Part shown: piece after piece, positions 1-19,489 of the stretch
Numbering within the stretch: the stretch's first letter is position 1
How the letters are laid out: each line of letters starts with the position of its first letter
Assembly (NCBI GenBank): GCA_964645535.1
Contig: CAZYCQ010000060.1
Location: 1-19,847, forward strand
Reading direction: 5' to 3'
From: an uncultured archaeon
GTDB lineage: Archaea; Asgardarchaeota; Heimdallarchaeia; Heimdallarchaeales; Kariarchaeaceae
Length of the DNA: 19,847 nucleotides
Made by a program: the position numbers and the translations under genes
The notes under the pieces: generated by a model
Told to the model about the DNA's origin: nothing
Database searches by the model: none
Seen by the model: only the letters and a program-made list of their open reading frames with translations

Positions 1-29
1 TCCCACCAGACCTGGCTCCTACGGGGGCT
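1..29. repeat. Partial copy of a hairpin repeat also found at 3211-3241 (truncated by the window start)
   Basis: TCCCACCAG-n5-GCTCC-TACG-GGGGC (1-28) matches TCCCACCAG-n8-GCTCC-TACG-GGAGC (3211-3241). The stem-loop is preserved through a G-T wobble. Confidence 0.7.
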
Positions 30-274
30 TACACTCATCCAGTACAAAATTGAATATGATCATAGTGAATGAATTGTTTTAAGCTGAAGTGTTAATTTGA
101 ATGAATTGAATGTATCTTAACGTGAATTCTAGTTCTGGTTCAACATAGGGATGGACGGATTGGTTCATGATTAGGGATAGTTTACAAAATTGATTTTGAA
201 AATGTTATAAAAAAATAAGGGAAAAACATAATATTTCTAGATTTTTATTGGTTTATAGGGAACGTGAAATTTAC

Positions 275-3409: not shown

Positions 3410-5779
3410 CTAATTTTGATTTTCATAGATCTTGGCCATTGTCTGATCAAACTCGTTGATCCGTAAAGCCATATCTTCAGGATATATCACCTGATAAATC
3501 CGGATCAACGGATAGTCACCAGAGGCAGGAGCACCTGCACCACCAGGAGGATAACCTGAACTTCTGAAGACTTCTTTGAAATAAGTGAGTGAGGTGACCG
3601 GATGACTATCCAGATCAGGAAGAAGGCTGTCCTTCAGACCCTTGCGATCAATGAATGGAGGACGGGACTGATCAATTCCGGTCATGTCAGGAGGGGCATA
3701 GGCCATCAGATTGTAGAGAACCGATTGATAGAACTTCTCCTTGTAACCGGAACCTTGATCAAAGTAGTCACTCTCTTTGACACCGTATTGTGGTGTATAC
3801 TGCTCTGAAATACGGATCATCCAGATCGCTTTTCCGATATCAGAGGACAGTGAAAGCACACCGGCGGCTGAATACACCAGAACATATTGTACGTTGTACT
3901 TGTACATCAGATTGATCGCAGCCGATGCATTCCACATCAGCATCGTTCCGACAGTCGCAATCTGCGTAGAATTGATCGTGGCGTTGTCTACTAACGTAAT
4001 TGTTTCTCCTAAACTTGTGATGTAATAGCCATAATCCCACCACGAGACCATTACAGGCGGTAAGCTGTCCATTCCGTTTTCTTTGATATGTTTTTTGTAA
4101 GATGTATGAGTTCTCATCCATTCGAATGCTTCCATCCAGTCATCGAGTGCACCGTTAGGTTTACCATCGAGGGATGGAGTTATTTCAGGTCTGGAGTATC
4201 GATCAGCCGCGGCATTAATTCCAGCACCGACCATTATAGCGAGGAGAGCGAAAACAGTTAGGTATGCTAGGAATGTATGAGCGTTACCAATTCTTTTCAT
4301 TCTCATGGTAGCTTTTGTTACCTTAATTCTTTTGTGAGAAATAAGTGCATAAGGTATGAGGAGGTTATCTACAGCGAGGGCAGTTAGTAGTGCAGCTGCG
4401 GGTGCAAGGATTAGCATAAGTCTGATCATGGATCCAGAGAAGTAGATTGTGATTAGTCCCCAAGTTAGGATGAAGAGGTTTCTTTCAGTAGGTTTGTTAA
4501 TTGCGAAGTATAGTCCTATTGGGATGAAGAATACCATAGTAGATATATTGAAGTAGAGGCTTCCCCAAGTCAGAGGTTGATGTTCAGATACGGAGTCGAT
4601 GAGTGGGAGAGCGGATCTGCTATCTGGGAGGATGACGGATATGAATTTATCACCTATTGCTTCGAGTGCTCCAATTGAAGCGAGTGCAATAGCGGCGAGT
4701 CCGATTACGGTCAGGAGTGTGACGAATGAGAGTATGATAAATTGTCTGAACACTTTAGGTGGTAGAGTTGAGGCGAGGTTTTGTATTATTCCGAAGAGGA
4801 TGAGGAATACGATGACACCGATTGGACCGACTCCTTCAGTAGAGAGGAGGAAAGCGCCTCCAATTCTTGGTATGAGTATCATAAGCAGTGAGCTGACAGA
4901 TATTGTGATGGTATATGTTTTGACGAGTCTTTCAGAGTAGTGTCCAGTCATGACCAGAACGAGGGCGTAGATACCGATAAGGTCATATCCGAATCTGAAA
5001 GCTCCCCAGCTGGTGGATAGTAGGAAGAGGGAAATTCCTGCGAGGATAGCGGAACCAGCGCTATTTCTTCGGAGTGCTCTGACGAAGAAGTAGAAAGAGA
5101 GCATGGTGAATAGTACGCCCAATGCTTCATTGTCGAGGAATCCAGCGATAGATCTCTGGACGTAAGATGGAGTTACAGCCATGATGAGAGCGACAATGAG
5201 TCCCCCTCTATCTGACACGAGTTCCTTTCCTAGGAGGTAGCTTACATATACGGCGATGGTTCCGAATACGACGGGAACGAGGTATCCAGCGAATGTAAGG
5301 GTTATATTGAATCCGAGGAACTGGAGGATACTGTAGATGAATATTGTTGCGAGAGGTATGGCGATATACATTGAAACGCCCACTTCTCTTCCGTATGGGT
5401 ACCATGAGTAGTAGTCATGCCATTTGAAGAAGGCGATGAGTCCATTCTGAAGGATATATCCAGCGCTTCTGAGCTGGAACCATGGATCAAACGCCTTGAT
5501 AAGCGGATCCCAACCGAGGAGGGTCGGGAAGAGCCGTACAACGAAAGCCAAGGTCAGGATGATGATAAGGGAGACATGTTTCATGGCCGAACCTTTTTCG
5601 ACCTCATATTCTCTGAAGTGTTCTTTGACACGTTCCCCTACCCTTTCCGTTAGCTCTTTGAATCTGTCGGAATGTGTAGTCGTGCTCATAATGAAAGCCT
5701 CTGTGGGATTTTGTAAAGGAGAAACGTTCTCTAGTTGTTGTTGAAAAGCACCCCTTAAAAAATCATGGTAACGCGACAT
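3410..5779 (-). CDS. aglB: Oligosaccharyltransferase AglB/STT3
   Basis: Multi-pass N-terminal region with AFDPW, FLDNE and SVSEH; soluble domain with WWDYG, DNAT and the DK motif DIGKAIWMIRI. True start may be ATG 5689. Confidence 0.97.
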   Translation of the reverse strand: MSRYHDFLRGAFQQQLENVSPLQNPTEAFIMSTTTHSDRFKELTERVGERVKEHFREYEVEKGSAMKHVSLIIILTLAFVVRLFPTLLGWDPLIKAFDPWFQLRSAGYILQNGLIAFFKWHDYYSWYPYGREVGVSMYIAIPLATIFIYSILQFLGFNITLTFAGYLVPVVFGTIAVYVSYLLGKELVSDRGGLIVALIMAVTPSYVQRSIAGFLDNEALGVLFTMLSFYFFVRALRRNSAGSAILAGISLFLLSTSWGAFRFGYDLIGIYALVLVMTGHYSERLVKTYTITISVSSLLMILIPRIGGAFLLSTEGVGPIGVIVFLILFGIIQNLASTLPPKVFRQFIILSFVTLLTVIGLAAIALASIGALEAIGDKFISVILPDSRSALPLIDSVSEHQPLTWGSLYFNISTMVFFIPIGLYFAINKPTERNLFILTWGLITIYFSGSMIRLMLILAPAAALLTALAVDNLLIPYALISHKRIKVTKATMRMKRIGNAHTFLAYLTVFALLAIMVGAGINAAADRYSRPEITPSLDGKPNGALDDWMEAFEWMRTHTSYKKHIKENGMDSLPPVMVSWWDYGYYITSLGETITLVDNATINSTQIATVGTMLMWNASAAINLMYKYNVQYVLVYSAAGVLSLSSDIGKAIWMIRISEQYTPQYGVKESDYFDQGSGYKEKFYQSVLYNLMAYAPPDMTGIDQSRPPFIDRKGLKDSLLPDLDSHPVTSLTYFKEVFRSSGYPPGGAGAPASGDYPLIRIYQVIYPEDMALRINEFDQTMAKIYENQN

Positions 5780-11702: not shown

Positions 11703-12348
11703 TCACCTCTCCACTTTGAACCAGTCGTCTGAAACCTTGAACTTGAGACGACGGCGACGCAACTTCCGAAAAAGAAACAGCGAAACGACCATGCCAATGA
11801 ACCAGATCAAGGAATCCTTCACCCGATTAAGGAAGAAAAGATCCCCTCCAGCAATGAGAAGCCGTTTTTTGACCATGGTAATCCCCACGCTCTCGGTCCA
11901 TTCAACATCCCTGATAAAAATGAAAACCCAAAGGGAAAGTATCCTCTGGTCACGAGAAACATTGAGAAATCCTCTGAATCTTGCCTCCACTTCACCAGTA
12001 CCAGTTAAACATTCCTGCATAACCGCGGTTACCCTTAGACCCCCTAATAAGCCATATGTCCGGTTTTGATATTCAATGCCAAGGGTCGGATGATCATTAG
12101 CCGAATTGTAGCATTTCTTGCCAGCAAAATCATAAAGACCGGTAGCTTCCAAATGTAGCCATAACCTATCCAAAGAAAGACGTTCAAGCAGTTGAATGGA
12201 AAGAGAAACGATGGAAAATTCGAACATCATCCCCTGATAGGAGGGAATGTCAAAAGTAAAAACAGATGGCTCCTTGCGAAAGATAGAGATTGGCATGGAG
12301 ACCACACCATCATTCAAACTGGAAAAATCTCCCCGAATGAAGACCGTT
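11703..12348 (-). pseudogene. C-terminal part of a membrane-anchored surface protein interrupted by the IS607-like element
   Basis: Frame is open from 12350, has no signal peptide, and ends in a hydrophobic helix plus RKLRRRR. It can be joined in frame to 17376-17737. Confidence 0.55.
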
Positions 12349-12408
12349 GGTCATAAGTGGTCGAAAATCTAGCCAAACCTTTCCAAATGCGTTCTTCCAG
12401 ACCCAACT

Positions 12409-12961
12409 ATGTATATTGGTATTGGACATGATAGCAGACTGCTGGGAGTCTCCGTCACAACGATGAGGAGGTGGGACAGAAACAGGAAATTTCCTGCAGA
12501 CAGGAGAATCAAGGGAAACCATCGTAGGTACCTGTTCTCCCGTTTCCAGCAACAGAAGGGAAACGACAGGATGGCATTCGGCTATGCTAGGGTCAGCGGG
12601 CATAAGCAAACCAAAGATCTTGAAAAACAGAAGCAATCGATACAGAATTATGCAGACAAAAACGGATATGGAGGCTGCCAGATTTTTGTGGATATTGCAT
12701 CCGGATTAAACGACCAAAGAAGAAATCTGCAAAGGCTGATCAAGACTGTTGCAATATATCAGCCAGAGGTAGTGATTGTCACCTATCACGATCGGTTGGC
12801 AAGGTTTGGCCCTGATCCGGCAGTTCTGCCAACTTTTTGGAACGTCTCAATTCACCAAAAAGAGGATCGTCCAACAGGTTCTTGTTGAGGATGTCATTGC
12901 CATCATGACCTCTTATGCGGAGAAATTGCATAGAAGGAGGCGAAAAATTCCCGCTTTATAA
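12409..12961 (+). pseudogene. tnpA: IS607-family transposase TnpA (MerR-type HTH plus serine recombinase), frameshifted
   Basis: LLGVSVTTMRRW...GNHRRY, YARVS, DIASGLN and DRLARFG in one frame. The C-terminal LVEDVIAIMTSYAEKLH is in another frame after about 12808. Confidence 0.92.
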
Positions 12962-12987
12962 ACCTAAAATGGATTCTTTCTGTTGGT

Positions 12988-15207
12988 ATGAAATCCAGAA
13001 AGTACTTACTGACCAGTGAACGCCCTATCAATCACCTGTTGGAAATCGTTGCTTTGGAGCATCCGGGGATAGGCATCCAGATCCAAAGGTCGTTGGAAAG
13101 CAAGGCCTACCCATTTTTGGTCATCTTCACATATCATGACCAAGAGGTATTTCCATCGATGGTCGAGAAGCAGATGGAAGCCATTGGTGCCAAACGTTTG
13201 CCCCCATGGATCGAATGGGCGGTCAACACACAGATTGATATCCCCTTTTCGACCATTGAACCTGTTAAACCTCCCTTATCCAAAAAAAAGAAGATCCACA
13301 AAAGGAAGCAGTTTGTCTATCGTTTTCCGGTGGAAACGCTTGAACTTGATGAAGAGCTCTCGACAAAACTGCTCTCATACAAGAGGAAACGACCCTTGAA
13401 ATCAAGTTTCAGGGCCTATCCCGATCGGGGGGCCGACAACTACTTTGACGGGTTCCCGTTCTTGCCCAAGATCCTGCAATTGGAACTCAAGCAAACCACC
13501 TACCCGTGGAGATTCGATCCGGACCTCCTCCTTCCCATCCTTCATCGTCTTTTTGCATGGTATCTGCCTTTTGAGCCCCGACCTCGCCAACGCCTGATGA
13601 TCCAGGAACTCATCGAAGGGATGACAACCCCGTTTCATCGGTCCTGCGACCATGGGGAGGGGATCATCCTCAATGCAGCGACAGGAATGGGCAAGACCAT
13701 GATCTCACTTGCCAGCCTGTTGTTCAGGAGAGGCATGATGCGATCACCGGGGCAAGTGCTCGTCTTTGTCCGTACCCATTCGCAATACTATCCCATTCTC
13801 AGGGAATTCGGCAGGATTGAACACAGGAGACTTCAGGCACCATATTCCGTCTTCAATGGCCAAGAAGGCATCGACGGGTTAGGAAAGACCTTGATTTTAC
13901 CGGTCCTCCCCAAGAAATCATTGTGCAGGATTAACGAACTTATCGGAAAGACACCTTCCACCTGTAATGGCTGTCCGCTCTATGCTAAAGGAATTAAATT
14001 CAGGAAAGAATATGCCCAGCCAGCCAATTCCGTCCAGGTTCTCCTTCGTCTGCGCAATCGGTTGATGAGCGGAGAGGATCCCTTTAGATGCACTGAAAAG
14101 CTCCTGAAGGAACAGCCCGGCTGTCCATATATGACTCGCAACGCCCTTCTGCACGAGGCGGATCTGATCATCCTTTCCCAATCATTTCTCCAAAGAGAGA
14201 AGTTTGACATCATCCACCAATATCTTCGGACGCCTCTTACTGAACTCTTGGTTCTTGTTGATGAAGCCCATCATCTTGCTTCTGCCTACCTTGAGGAACG
14301 AGACGGCAGGCACTTCACCCAAGACCGGGACATCTCCCACCTGCACCCTGCAACCACTCTGATTCTCCAATCAGGATCTTTTGTGTTCCCTACGGTCTAT
14401 CGAGGGATGTTCATGGATTACGCCCGTATCATTGAGACTGAAGGAACACGTACCAGCCTCAGTCCGCAGGTTAAGAGGTTCCAATTGGCCCTTCCCAGAC
14501 TGAACAGCAGCGAGAGACAGAGAAAGGATGGTGAGCTGTACCAAAGATATGCGGACACCGTCCTGAAGCTGTTCAGGCATGGAAAAGGACATGCCTTGGT
14601 GGTTGCCCCTTCCTATGCTTTCCTTAACCAATTACTGCACGCTTTCCTTCCGTTTCGTCCAAAATATGTGGAGCAGCCTGACACCAAAATGGAAGAGTTC
14701 AATGGTCTACTCAACGAGGAGGAACGTCAACTGGTCTTGGTCATGGCAGGGGGCAAGTTCTCCGAAGGGGTGGAATGGAGCAAGAACGGAAAGAGTCTCG
14801 TTGATCAGGTCATCTTCACCGGAATTCCCTACCTGCCGAAAAGCAGTGACCTTGAATTCCACGTAAGGACATCCTGCCTCAAAAGGATCTATGACAACAA
14901 CAGGTGCCGGCAGTCGTCTCCCAAATCAAATATGGACTTCTTTTCCATGAAGAGAGATCTCAACCTTGTCATCCCACTGATCCAGAAGATTGACCAGACC
15001 ATTGGAAGAGCCATACGTAATGCACAGGATACAGCACAGGTATGGTTCATCGATGATCGGGAAACCGATTTCTTCTACAGCTATTACAAACCGAAATTAC
15101 GGTATCGCCTTCCGAGAGGTAATTTTTCACAACATTTCTCCAAAAAGCCATTCCTCAGGGGGCAACGAAAAGAATCAGATGCTATCGACCTTTTACGCGA
15201 TTTATAA
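12988..15207 (+). CDS. XPD/Rad3/DinG-family Fe-S DEAH helicase lacking the arch domain
   Basis: Q motif PRPRQ; motif I AATGMGKT; Ia VRTHSQ; Cys cluster LC-x12-CxxC...CPY; II DEAH; III SGS; IV PSY; V GGKFSEGVE; GIPY; VI QTIGRAIR. Confidence 0.92.
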   Translation: MKSRKYLLTSERPINHLLEIVALEHPGIGIQIQRSLESKAYPFLVIFTYHDQEVFPSMVEKQMEAIGAKRLPPWIEWAVNTQIDIPFSTIEPVKPPLSKKKKIHKRKQFVYRFPVETLELDEELSTKLLSYKRKRPLKSSFRAYPDRGADNYFDGFPFLPKILQLELKQTTYPWRFDPDLLLPILHRLFAWYLPFEPRPRQRLMIQELIEGMTTPFHRSCDHGEGIILNAATGMGKTMISLASLLFRRGMMRSPGQVLVFVRTHSQYYPILREFGRIEHRRLQAPYSVFNGQEGIDGLGKTLILPVLPKKSLCRINELIGKTPSTCNGCPLYAKGIKFRKEYAQPANSVQVLLRLRNRLMSGEDPFRCTEKLLKEQPGCPYMTRNALLHEADLIILSQSFLQREKFDIIHQYLRTPLTELLVLVDEAHHLASAYLEERDGRHFTQDRDISHLHPATTLILQSGSFVFPTVYRGMFMDYARIIETEGTRTSLSPQVKRFQLALPRLNSSERQRKDGELYQRYADTVLKLFRHGKGHALVVAPSYAFLNQLLHAFLPFRPKYVEQPDTKMEEFNGLLNEEERQLVLVMAGGKFSEGVEWSKNGKSLVDQVIFTGIPYLPKSSDLEFHVRTSCLKRIYDNNRCRQSSPKSNMDFFSMKRDLNLVIPLIQKIDQTIGRAIRNAQDTAQVWFIDDRETDFFYSYYKPKLRYRLPRGNFSQHFSKKPFLRGQRKESDAIDLLRDL

Positions 15208-15208
15208 A
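15201..15208 (+). promoter_or_regulatory. TATA box for the structured leader and tnpB-like gene
   Basis: TTTATAAA overlaps the helicase stop codon, implying a transcription start near 15230 where the structured region begins. Confidence 0.45.
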
Positions 15209-15229
15209 GCTTAAATTTACATGGATAGT

Positions 15230-15470
15230 ACCTCACAAGGGAAAAGCCTGAATAATGTCGACACTGTCGAACTTTCAGGTAAGATGCAATGGAGAACATT
15301 GCCGAGAGCAGACCGCACAACTGCTCGGGTCGTAGGCATTGGGTGAAAGCTCTTGGCTACGTTGGTGCCCCGCCACTGGCCGCTTTGCGGGTAACAAATG
15401 GCCTTAAAGGACCGGTATGGTCCATGCGCTCAGTATGGGTTGGATCTGCCGGTCCAGTCCATGCTGAGGT
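15230..15470 (+). ncRNA. Putative structured ncRNA or 5' leader
   Basis: Stems at 15247-52/15274-79, 15258-62/15266-70, 15286-91/15297-302, 15306-11/15321-26, 15409-13/15419-23, and a 16-bp stem 15429-44/15453-68 containing G-U pairs. Closing pair ACCTCA/TGAGGT (15230-35/15465-70). Confidence 0.55.
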
Positions 15471-15476
15471 GACAAG

Positions 15477-17234
15477 GTGATGACAATGACAAAACGAAAG
15501 AAAAACGTCTCCTCAAAGCAATCTGACGCGTCCGGCGGTTCCGGACAAACTGCAACCTATCGTGTTCACTACAAGATTCCTGATGAAGTTTCAGACCGGA
15601 AGGAATTCCGAACGCGACTGGCCAACAAGATTAGGGATCTGAAAGAGCTGAGCTTGGCAATGGCAAACCATCCTCGAGTTCTCGAGGGCATGGAGAAATA
15701 TGTGCTTCAGAGTCCAAGGTTCTCCTTGAACAAGTTCAGAAAGACCTTTCTCAATCCCTACAAAAACGAATTCGCTCAGGTCAAGGTGAAGCTGTCCACA
15801 GGGAAGGAAATGCCACTCTATGTAGGATCCAACCTGCATGAATCCACTTTTGCATATGTCCATGGGGCATTCAAGGCAAGAGAGGTACTGAAGAGGCTTT
15901 TTCTGAAAGTGGTCAAGGACTGCGAAATCATGTTTTCCCTCTTTGGCAGGGATCCGTTTATGGGTCTAAAGCTGCGGAAAATGAAATATACAAAGGCTTT
16001 TGCCTATAATTTTGTGGTCGGTCTCGGAAGGAAGCTGGACCAGCCGATCCCCCAATTTCGGGTAGAGCCGAAGGTCATTCGTCAATGGTATGATGACCTG
16101 TTCGAGCCGAAGACGGACAATCAAAAAAAATTTCATGAACGGGCACAGGTCATGGTCGATAACCCTGGCAAGGTTATTGCTGTGCTCACTGACTTTTTCA
16201 AAGATTGTGGACTTCCTTCGGACAATTGGGAGCTGCTCAAATCGACATTGAGCCATCGGTTTCCCAAGGTCTATGCCTCTCCTTTCCGTCACCTGATCTG
16301 CTATATCGCGGTCAAGCACGGCTTTCAGCCCCAGTTTGACTTGGACAAGCTATTTCCGCGTCCCGAGTTCAACGACCTTCCCATTCAGTTGGTGATGAGT
16401 AAGAAATACGTCATCAAAAGACCGGGCAACTCGTCAGAGATGACCGAATTGGTTTGCAAAGGTAAATCTATTGACCTCATCTTCCCCAACAAAGGGAAAC
16501 CGCTGGAAGTAACTATCAAGTTCCCCAAGGCTGTTGTCAGACGCATCTGCGCAGGTGCTGTCCTGAGCAGTTTCCGGGTGGATCTTGACCGTGACGGCCA
16601 GCCGCGTATTGATGTCATCCTTAGGAAGGTGCCCTCTCCCTGGAGTACCAAACTTTGGAAGATGGAGCTGGAAAAGACTCGAGTGGTGGCTCTGGACATC
16701 AATCGGTTGGGTGAACACATGCTCTCCTTCAATCAGCCAACGGACAACAGTGTGTTCAAGGAACTAAACAGGAAATATCAGGCAGTCAGTGACCAGATCA
16801 AGCAATACAAAAGCTCAGATCACTGGCAGCTTGGTCAACTGCATAGAAGGCGGAGCAACCTGCTGAAAACGGCTCATTCATTAGTTCCGCGGTTCATTGC
16901 CAGTGTGATCGTCAACTCCGGAGCGGAGGTTCTGGTAACGGAATTTTTGACAGTCACGACACGCAAAACCAAAGGGTCTTTAGCCAAGGCAATCACGACC
17001 ATGCCTCAAAAAGAGGAGCTGATTGCCAAGGCACTAGCCATCTGCAGGAAGCTGGGTCATGCAGTCGAGCACCGGATCGTGAATCCCCGTCACGTGAATT
17101 TCAAAGTGCACTTTGGATGTGGCGGCCGTCTAGACAGGGGTCCGGGCCAATGGGATTATGCTCCCTGCAAAAGATGCGGCGAGAAAGTGAATACGCACCA
17201 GAATGCCGCAGAATTGCTCGCTGCCCGCAGTTGA
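15477..17234 (+). CDS. Large TnpB/Cas12f-like RuvC protein with altered RuvC-III
   Basis: RuvC-I VVALDIN (D407), basic bridge helix LHRRRSNLLK, RuvC-II VLVTEFL (E489), VNP, zinc finger HxxC...CxxC, and terminal THQNAAELL. GAGGTGA RBS at 15466-15472 suits ATG 15480. Confidence 0.82.
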   Translation: MMTMTKRKKNVSSKQSDASGGSGQTATYRVHYKIPDEVSDRKEFRTRLANKIRDLKELSLAMANHPRVLEGMEKYVLQSPRFSLNKFRKTFLNPYKNEFAQVKVKLSTGKEMPLYVGSNLHESTFAYVHGAFKAREVLKRLFLKVVKDCEIMFSLFGRDPFMGLKLRKMKYTKAFAYNFVVGLGRKLDQPIPQFRVEPKVIRQWYDDLFEPKTDNQKKFHERAQVMVDNPGKVIAVLTDFFKDCGLPSDNWELLKSTLSHRFPKVYASPFRHLICYIAVKHGFQPQFDLDKLFPRPEFNDLPIQLVMSKKYVIKRPGNSSEMTELVCKGKSIDLIFPNKGKPLEVTIKFPKAVVRRICAGAVLSSFRVDLDRDGQPRIDVILRKVPSPWSTKLWKMELEKTRVVALDINRLGEHMLSFNQPTDNSVFKELNRKYQAVSDQIKQYKSSDHWQLGQLHRRRSNLLKTAHSLVPRFIASVIVNSGAEVLVTEFLTVTTRKTKGSLAKAITTMPQKEELIAKALAICRKLGHAVEHRIVNPRHVNFKVHFGCGGRLDRGPGQWDYAPCKRCGEKVNTHQNAAELLAARS

Positions 17235-17375
17235 GACTTATCCTCGGATAAGAAGTTTGATAGAGCTTTCAAAATCTATCCACTCGATCGCTTCGCATGA
17301 CGGGATCGGGGTCTGCAGTCCAATTGGACAACCAATCTAAGCTGTGACAGGGGCATGCAACTGCATGGCTAGATT
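17235..17375 (+). ncRNA. Putative right-end (omega/reRNA-like) scaffold
   Basis: Hairpins at 17237-52, 17259-64/17275-80, 17318-29 and 17354-67, directly 3' of the TnpB-like gene where TnpB guide scaffolds are normally encoded. Confidence 0.45.
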
Positions 17376-17737
17376 TGGGCAGATAGTAATACATGCGTGG
17401 AATTTACAGATGTGAAAATTACTTCAAATTCCACCACCTCAAAGGAAAGACCCTGAACTGAGGAGACAGGTCGGGGAAGACATCTCTCCTGAGTTTCCCA
17501 ACCATAAAATAGCCACGGAAGGATATGCTGGGAAAAAGTTAATGAAGAAACACAATCCCTACTATTGTTGTATAAGGACGAAAACCAGAAGGACACATTA
17601 ACCATGACACGATATCGATACTGCTTGAGCCAGAAAATACGCGAATCCTCAATACGATCAACCTCAATTCGGTTGTGGTTCGTAGCTGAAACAGGAACCG
17701 TCAACAGGAAAACCAACAAGATCAACATCAGACGCAT
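17369..17737 (-). pseudogene. N-terminal part of a secreted protein, truncated at the element right end
   Basis: Signal peptide MRLMLILLVFLLTVPVSA. Its stop codon lies inside the element's terminal 11-bp repeat. Confidence 0.55.
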
Positions 17738-19397: not shown

Positions 19398-19489
19398 TGA
19401 CCCGACCGGGATTTGAACCCGGGTCGACGGGGATCTTCTCAATGAAGATTGAAAGCCCGCCATGATTGGCCGAGCTACACCATCGGGCC
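19398..19489 (-). tRNA. tRNA-Glu(UUC) with a 17-nt intron at 37/38 (intron 19433-19449)
   Basis: Acceptor GGCCCGA/TCGGGTC, anticodon stem GCGGG/CCCGT, loop CT-TTC-A^C, T arm CCGGG-TTCAAAT-CCCGG. Mature length 75 nt, no encoded CCA. Confidence 0.95.

Follow-up and report, generated by a model that had tools for sequence, protein, structure and literature searches.

An IS607-family element of an Asgard archaeon carries an Arch-less XPD-type helicase gene and a structured leader ahead of its TnpB gene

Insertion sequences of the IS607 family follow a simple rule, in which a 2-bp core is used, no duplication is made and a sub-terminal inverted motif is present (Chen et al. 2018, PMC6188088). Passages of Altae-Tran et al. 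(PMC10691335) describe TnpB branches in which an Asp-to-His exchange at RuvC-III is a conserved branch rearrangement that probably retains activity, and they also note rare cargo genes, including a helicase, in serine-recombinase TnpB elements. In the type IV-A CRISPR helicase CasDinG, removal of the Arch domain kept ATP hydrolysis but abolished unwinding, and the Arch was needed for unwinding and immunity (PMC10450177). Here we analysed a stretch of 19,847 nt (the window), which is an entire contig (C60) of a 3.6-Mb assembly and is also present in hot-spring metagenomes. A preliminary description, made from the letters of the window, had placed an IS607-like transposon with a Fe-S helicase, a structured spacer and an altered TnpB at 12349-17375. 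Comparison of the genome copies and reconstruction of the excised site corrected these limits to 12347-17397, and all parts were confirmed to lie on the + strand. The features were as follows.

12347..17397, + strand: entire IS607-family element, 5,051 nt, without target duplication; frame restored on removal
12343..12346, + strand: target motif ACCG of the left flank, from the empty-site reconstruction; its CG is the 2-bp crossover core, found again at 17396-17397
12347..12408, + strand: left end, 62 nt, with an 11-nt motif at 12365-12375
12409..12961, + strand: IS607 tnpA (MerR-type HTH and serine recombinase); NF033518 on both pieces, MerR plus Resolvase
12955..12962, + strand: TATA-like box seen in the sequence, 25 nt 5' of the helicase ATG
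12988..15207, + strand: 739-aa XPD/Rad3-type SF2 ATPase with intact reading frame, by sequence, profile and fold matches
15201..15208, + strand: TATA-like box that overlaps the stop codon of the helicase gene, with similar boxes at the corresponding position in C90, C34 and G001
15209..15476, + strand: structured leader RNA upstream of tnpB (z -4.1; C90 counterpart z -3.9)
15429..15468, + strand: 18-bp hairpin, the base of which covers the start of the tnpB Shine-Dalgarno site (15466-15472)
15477..17234, + strand: 585-aa TnpB of an Asgard family, with RuvC D407, E489 and H574, a HxxC/CxxC zinc finger and an enlarged helical N-lobe
17235..17397, + strand: right end and presumed omega-RNA scaffold, structured and conserved, with the flank from 17398 as the expected guide
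17398..17737, - strand: 5' part of the host gene cut by the element, from the empty-site reconstruction
11703..12346, - strand: 3' part of the same host gene, from the empty-site reconstruction

The element is a member of the IS607 family and functions like one. Like the described IS607 insertion sequences (PMC6188088; ISFba1 TnpB, PDB 8iaz), it has a TnpA(Ser), here a serine recombinase with an N-terminal HTH, dissimilar ends with a sub-terminal inverted motif, an identical 2-bp core without target duplication, a TnpB fold and a structured right end, and terminal inverted repeats are absent. Unlike them, it uses a CG core in ACCG where they use GG, and it measures 5.05 kb, with an extra 2.2-kb gene, a leader of ~270 nt and a 585-aa TnpB with His at RuvC-III. 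When 12347-17397 was excised and the shared CG was kept once, a 339-codon open frame was restored on the - strand, and the same one-CG rule restored frames at C100 and at G001:C80 of a sister species, which makes three sites altogether. Equal ends with differing flanks were found at C60, C100, C34, C80 and C91. The left ends were preceded by ACCG at C60, C100, C80, C34 and three sister-species sites, and by ACCA at C91; ACCG is presumed to be the TAM of the element's TnpB. The 11-nt motif of the left end and the motif 17366-17376 of the right end are reverse complements of each other, the right-end form was also seen in two sister species, and these sub-terminal inverted motifs of both ends are likely the TnpA sites. 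The tnpA gene was described as broken, and this was borne out by comparison with sister copies, which showed frameshifts from three microdeletions of 5, 7 and 5 nt. Its profile score was 104.9 bits, under the cut-off of 110, because the gene is broken, and the 26-nt gap between tnpA and the helicase was found as described. As the site comparison shows, TnpA (now broken, and supplied in trans if this copy still moves) recombines the ends into ACCG over the CG core without duplication. An IStron reading was rejected, the left end being 62 nt long; a group I intron core was sought there and Rfam gave no intron match at E up to 1.

A deletion copy on C100, at another site, retains the left end, tnpA, helicase aa 1-50 fused to TnpB aa 559-585, and the right end, and its helicase-TnpB joint was also present in sequencing-run contigs. 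Since this copy holds pieces of both genes elsewhere, the helicase was already inside the unit at transposition. Independent nested insertions, adjacent by chance, had been named beforehand as the finding that would count against a single system. The element is indeed a mosaic, since its left end and tnpA are a recent module common to elements with a TnpB of only 27% identity, but one clean excision repairs the host gene and the C100 copy keeps parts of helicase and TnpB together. For the present insertion these findings refute chance adjacency, which we regard as hardly credible. Retention or domestication, at which two intact large ORFs next to a broken tnpA had seemed to hint, is not indicated either, because a host gene was recently disrupted by the element, which has siblings at other sites. 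Miniature copies were also found. C34 consists of the left end, the promoter, a leader of ~190-200 nt and the right end with all genes gone; C131 and C88 resemble it, but their left end was not detectable, and the leader is absent from the other miniature copies. Between leader and right end, these three carry a filler of ~200 nt (G000:C34 21625-21822; C131, C88) in which long stems are possible. A search for the source of the filler identified none, and since C34, C131 and C88 share it, they have a single origin.

The TnpB model had a pLDDT of 83.6 and showed a WED/REC/RuvC/Zn-finger fold, with best matches to Cas12f and the ISFba1 TnpB (E 1e-11 to 5e-8) and a profile match too. The third residue of the canonical D-E-D triad is replaced by His (D407/E489/H574). 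In 26 sequences D407 was invariant and E489 and H574 were nearly so, and all three were invariant in a 10-sequence set; because it is kept across the family sequences, the His at RuvC-III is an old family trait. The same branch-wide Asp-to-His exchange, together with occasional cargo (including a helicase) in a serine-recombinase element, appears in the passages of Altae-Tran et al. (PMC10691335) mentioned above, whereas the element described here carries an XPD-type Fe-S protein that lacks the Arch; this comparison is by trait and not by named branch. Of the 61 genomes searched, 37 contained relatives of this TnpB, frequently with many copies per genome, and the 14 genomes outside the order in this sample contained none. 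In a wider scan, a Thorarchaeota record matched as well. On the genome contigs, a single-sequence scan for the family gave no matches and an alignment-based scan did. The preliminary description had called the TnpB altered and had pointed to the TldR repressors, but the protein is not an inactivated copy of that kind, since the triad is kept family-wide and the exchange is catalogued in the passages cited (PMC10691335). TldR proteins have an inactivated RuvC and have lost the transposon context; here, a conserved catalytic-type triad is kept in multi-copy elements with transposon ends, and the guide would be the insertion flank.

The right end folded better than 200/200 shuffles (z -3.6), which confirmed the hairpin-rich right end of the first reading, and an Rfam search of it was without match. 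By analogy with IS607 and TnpB biology, TnpB and the right-end omega-RNA, with the flank as guide, would cut or nick empty ACCG sites so that the element is retained. When the assembly was scanned for further guide targets, no match elsewhere was better than two mismatches in 14 nt beside CCG. With the ends known exactly, both the TAM (ACCG) and the guide can be predicted, so that this D/E/H family of TnpB could be assayed directly.

Between tnpA and the leader lies the helicase gene. Its TATA-like box suggests a leaderless transcript of its own. Like the XPD of S. acidocaldarius (PDB 3crv), the protein has HD1, the four Fe-S cysteines, HD2 and all helicase motifs, among them an intact Walker A, DEAH and motifs III, V and VI. 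Unlike it, the protein has an N-terminal extension of about 190 aa ahead of the core, which was poorly modelled and gave no usable match in an Atlas search, and lies on a long separate branch, and its whole Arch domain (about 90 aa) is missing. The DEAH-to-motif III spacing was 36 aa in the window and 33 aa in a paralog on C90, whereas the ordinary Asgard XPDs that were measured have 122-127 aa and the median of 129 matches was 153 aa, and the Arch was absent from the predicted structure. The helicase had been described as intact, which holds for the reading frame, motifs and Fe-S cysteines and does not hold for the Arch. In sequence and in fold it matches archaeal XPD best, rather than CasDinG, and it also gives scores with the DinG profiles of type IV. 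When 5.8 billion proteins and 1.84 billion representatives were searched, the sole true relative was the 47-48% identical paralog on C90 of the same genome, and ordinary XPDs were the only matches in 60 related genomes. The two Arch-less helicases found among the 1.84 billion representatives, in the window and on C90, are each followed immediately by a leader and a TnpB that are related between the two loci. In the tree, the helicase is not near either host XPD copy, and no donor is named. A literature phrase search found no XPD/DinG paper on an Arch-less form. With a natural, selected XPD that lacks the Arch, the abilities of the XPD core on its own could be tested directly.

The C90 copy consists of the Arch-less paralog, then a related leader, then a 573-aa TnpB that is 29-33% identical to that of the window. 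Between the two copies, synonymous sites were saturated or nearly so and dN/dS of the helicase core was about 0.16, so judging from these comparisons both genes have long been under purifying selection. An absence of any link between the helicase and this TnpB clade, which had been named in advance as evidence against a joint system, was therefore not what we found, because the helicase-leader-TnpB order recurs in the diverged C90 copy with both genes under selection. The two TnpBs are sister branches with support 91/78, which is weak, on long branches. At C90, tnpA and the IS607 end motif are absent. In another assembly the C90 contig is extended (L239 988-9952), and there an 8.9-kb block lies between perfect 45-bp direct repeats, containing two degenerate genes (one TrwB/HerA-like by its paralog), helicase, leader and TnpB in this order; the block sits inside a decayed peptidase-like gene, and an integrase is absent. 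The helicase-leader-TnpB block thus occurs in two mobile settings, one with IS607 ends and one with 45-bp direct repeats. The last 99 nt of the extended contig are the same as window 1-99, so that the two pairs are probably neighbours, about 13 kb apart. As both pairs belong to one genome and share one ancestor, they represent a single evolutionary event.

With these data, the mechanism offered in the preliminary description could be weighed, in which an R-loop made by a dead or altered TnpB would be the loading site of a CasDinG-like 5'-3' helicase, with silencing as the outcome, at a domesticated locus. As in type IV-A CRISPR (PMC10450177) and TldR systems, a protein of the XPD/DinG family, here with the DinG profile scores given above, stands beside an RNA-guided DNA-binding protein, and cutting by this family, with its His at RuvC-III, is a prediction. 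However, the D/E/H triad is family-wide in actively spreading elements, the guide would be the insertion flank alone, with no match elsewhere in the assembly better than two mismatches, the closest structures are archaeal XPD, and the element interrupts a host gene and has mobile siblings. The Arch is also lost, although CasDinG depends on it for unwinding and immunity (PMC10450177). Array-like repeats and further genes (Csf) were sought within the element and not found. The element is neither a TldR nor a type IV system, and we consider the silencing mechanism highly improbable. What stands of the first reading as a whole is one mobile unit with a recurrent helicase-leader-TnpB order, while the TldR-like TnpB, the CasDinG-like helicase and the domestication fell away.

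The spacer between helicase and TnpB, first put at ~240 nt and structured, measured 269 nt and folded better than 200/200 shuffles (z -4.1). The box at 15201-15208 is presumed to be the promoter of leader and tnpB, and in cargo-free relatives a similar TATA-like box was found immediately before tnpB. A sigma-70 promoter scan was set aside as unsuited to an archaeon. Equivalent hairpins at the ribosome-binding site, with changed but paired letters, were found in C90 and in G001, where the deleted element has no helicase, and two further leader loops were common to the window and C90 on stems of altered sequence. The leaders were compared motif by motif, the automatic window-C90 alignment having misregistered the hairpins, and with few sequences the covariation is indicative only. 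No Rfam family matched the leader, a DNA search in 60 relatives did not find it, and most TnpB family members lack it. Its simplest role, judged from the structure, is to damp TnpB translation by covering the ribosome-binding site; the leader would then be the 5' part of the tnpB transcript. Besides acting as a translation brake, it might be a tracr-like part of a two-piece guide RNA for the enlarged TnpB. This is suggested by the miniatures C34, C131 and C88 (of one origin), which kept promoter, ~190 nt of leader and right end while the genes were lost, and by a perfect 10-bp match between leader and right end in the window (reached in 1/60 shuffles). But the leader is missing from most family members and from other miniature copies, and the pairing was not found in C90 or G001 and is lost in C34, so a two-piece guide appears rather unlikely to us.

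We then compared what lies between tnpA and tnpB across the family. The collection comprised 129 TnpB-family loci, including some duplicates between collections, with at least 1.2 kb upstream at 77/129. XPD matches occurred at 2/129 loci, the window and C90, and at 0/127 others; a search for co-occurrence, proposed earlier, thus found the linkage again at C90 and found no helicase at the 127 other loci. At 41/46 loci having an upstream tnpA, it lies 31-164 nt from tnpB. In a same-genus genome (G002:C52), tnpA is followed by a 970-aa HerA/TrwB-like membrane ATPase, a seven-unit hairpin array and a TnpB that is intact and falls in the same four-member clade. The tnpA region of this element is 86% DNA-identical to that of the window until the last codons, where the cassettes diverge. 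C80 of the same genome as the window carries a truncated copy of this HerA/TrwB-cargo element, with a tnpA region likewise 86% DNA-identical. IS607-TnpB elements are thus gene carriers in Asgard archaea, and their slot took nucleic-acid motor genes more than once. The preliminary description knew of no account of such an architecture, but the passages of PMC10691335 cited above already mention cargo, a helicase among it, for TnpB elements of the Ser type.

Two kinds of repeat array were observed in these slots. The array of G002:C52 (L043 3453-3706), between the ATPase cargo and tnpB, has seven tandem hairpin units of 39-41 nt with a constant 13-nt core, which could be candidate protein-binding sites at the RNA or DNA level. 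In Thorarchaeota-type elements (L132 4868-5058, L221 4729-4887), 5-6 units of 32 nt, each GGTCA-N7-GCAA plus a variable spacer, lie between tnpA and tnpB and adjoin antisense HerA-like remains; since they fold no better than shuffles, they are possibly iteron-like DNA sites or a dual-repeat array.

The wider surroundings of XPD genes were also informative. A weakly matching HerA-like gene immediately precedes one of the nearest full-length XPD relatives. On C20, the host XPD has polB and paralogs of the two neighbour genes of C90 around it. From these neighbourhoods, the helicase's older company was HerA/TrwB-like genes. The C20 region (G000:C20 24303-44380; L103, L104) contains polB, XPD and several large proteins that lack annotation, of which at least one is TrwB/HerA-like without Walker A. 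It may be an integrated element or a locus for DNA transfer or repair. On C50 (G000:C50 14656-17127; L089), two cdc6-like genes flank a host homolog of the HerA-like cargo ATPase, and a cdc6-like neighbour is present in a sister species too.

We give about an even chance to the reading that this is a cargo-bearing IS607 element in which the helicase is a selected passenger from an Asgard HerA/TrwB-plus-XPD gene cluster. The TnpB cassette would have come behind the helicase, and the helicase-leader-TnpB block would later have joined the IS607 left end and tnpA. As the Arch is absent, the helicase is probably a nucleic-acid-stimulated ATPase or a short-range translocase, which would serve the parent element or the host and not act with TnpB. 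The single insertion, the C100 copy, the slot counts, the HerA neighbours, the CasDinG Arch data and the published cargo all count for a passenger. Against it count that both Arch-less helicases abut leader and TnpB, that helicase and TnpB have both long been intact, and that the block is found in two mobile settings; a neutral passenger should in time decay, so some benefit of the helicase must be assumed.

This benefit could also lie in direct help to TnpB, a proposal that we treat as tentative and somewhat doubtful. The Arch-less ATPase would open the leader hairpin, remodel the omega-RNA or strip TnpB from cut DNA for homing repair, and the Arch loss and N-terminal extension would be adaptations to this job. 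The gene order kept across saturated divergence, the purifying selection on both genes, the sister placement of the two TnpBs (weak, as stated), the finding of the Arch-less form at these two loci and nowhere else in the searches, and the covarying leader are consistent with such help. On the other side, the two cases come from one ancestor in one genome, probably about 13 kb apart, and so are one event, the intact TnpB of the same four-member clade has a different ATPase, the bulk of the family multiplies without a helicase, and the hairpin at the ribosome-binding site is also present in G001, whose deleted element has none. Co-folding of partial chains (TnpB 23-585 with helicase 1-432) gave a score of 0.01, which counts for neither side. 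If the proposal is true, this would be a helicase-assisted OMEGA system, in which a compact RNA-guided nuclease has gained a new kind of helper; in sister elements, the slot of the helicase might be taken by HerA-like ATPases.

Outside the IS607 element, the window contains some other features. At 248-2906 lies a low-GC (about 32%) convergent pair, consisting of a type II methyltransferase (1512-2906, - strand) and a 431-aa protein that is probably its restriction endonuclease. An ordinary STT3/AglB oligosaccharyltransferase gene lies at 3410-5779 (- strand). A tRNA gene at 19398-19489 (- strand) carries about 19 extra nt at its anticodon loop, which are probably an archaeal intron.
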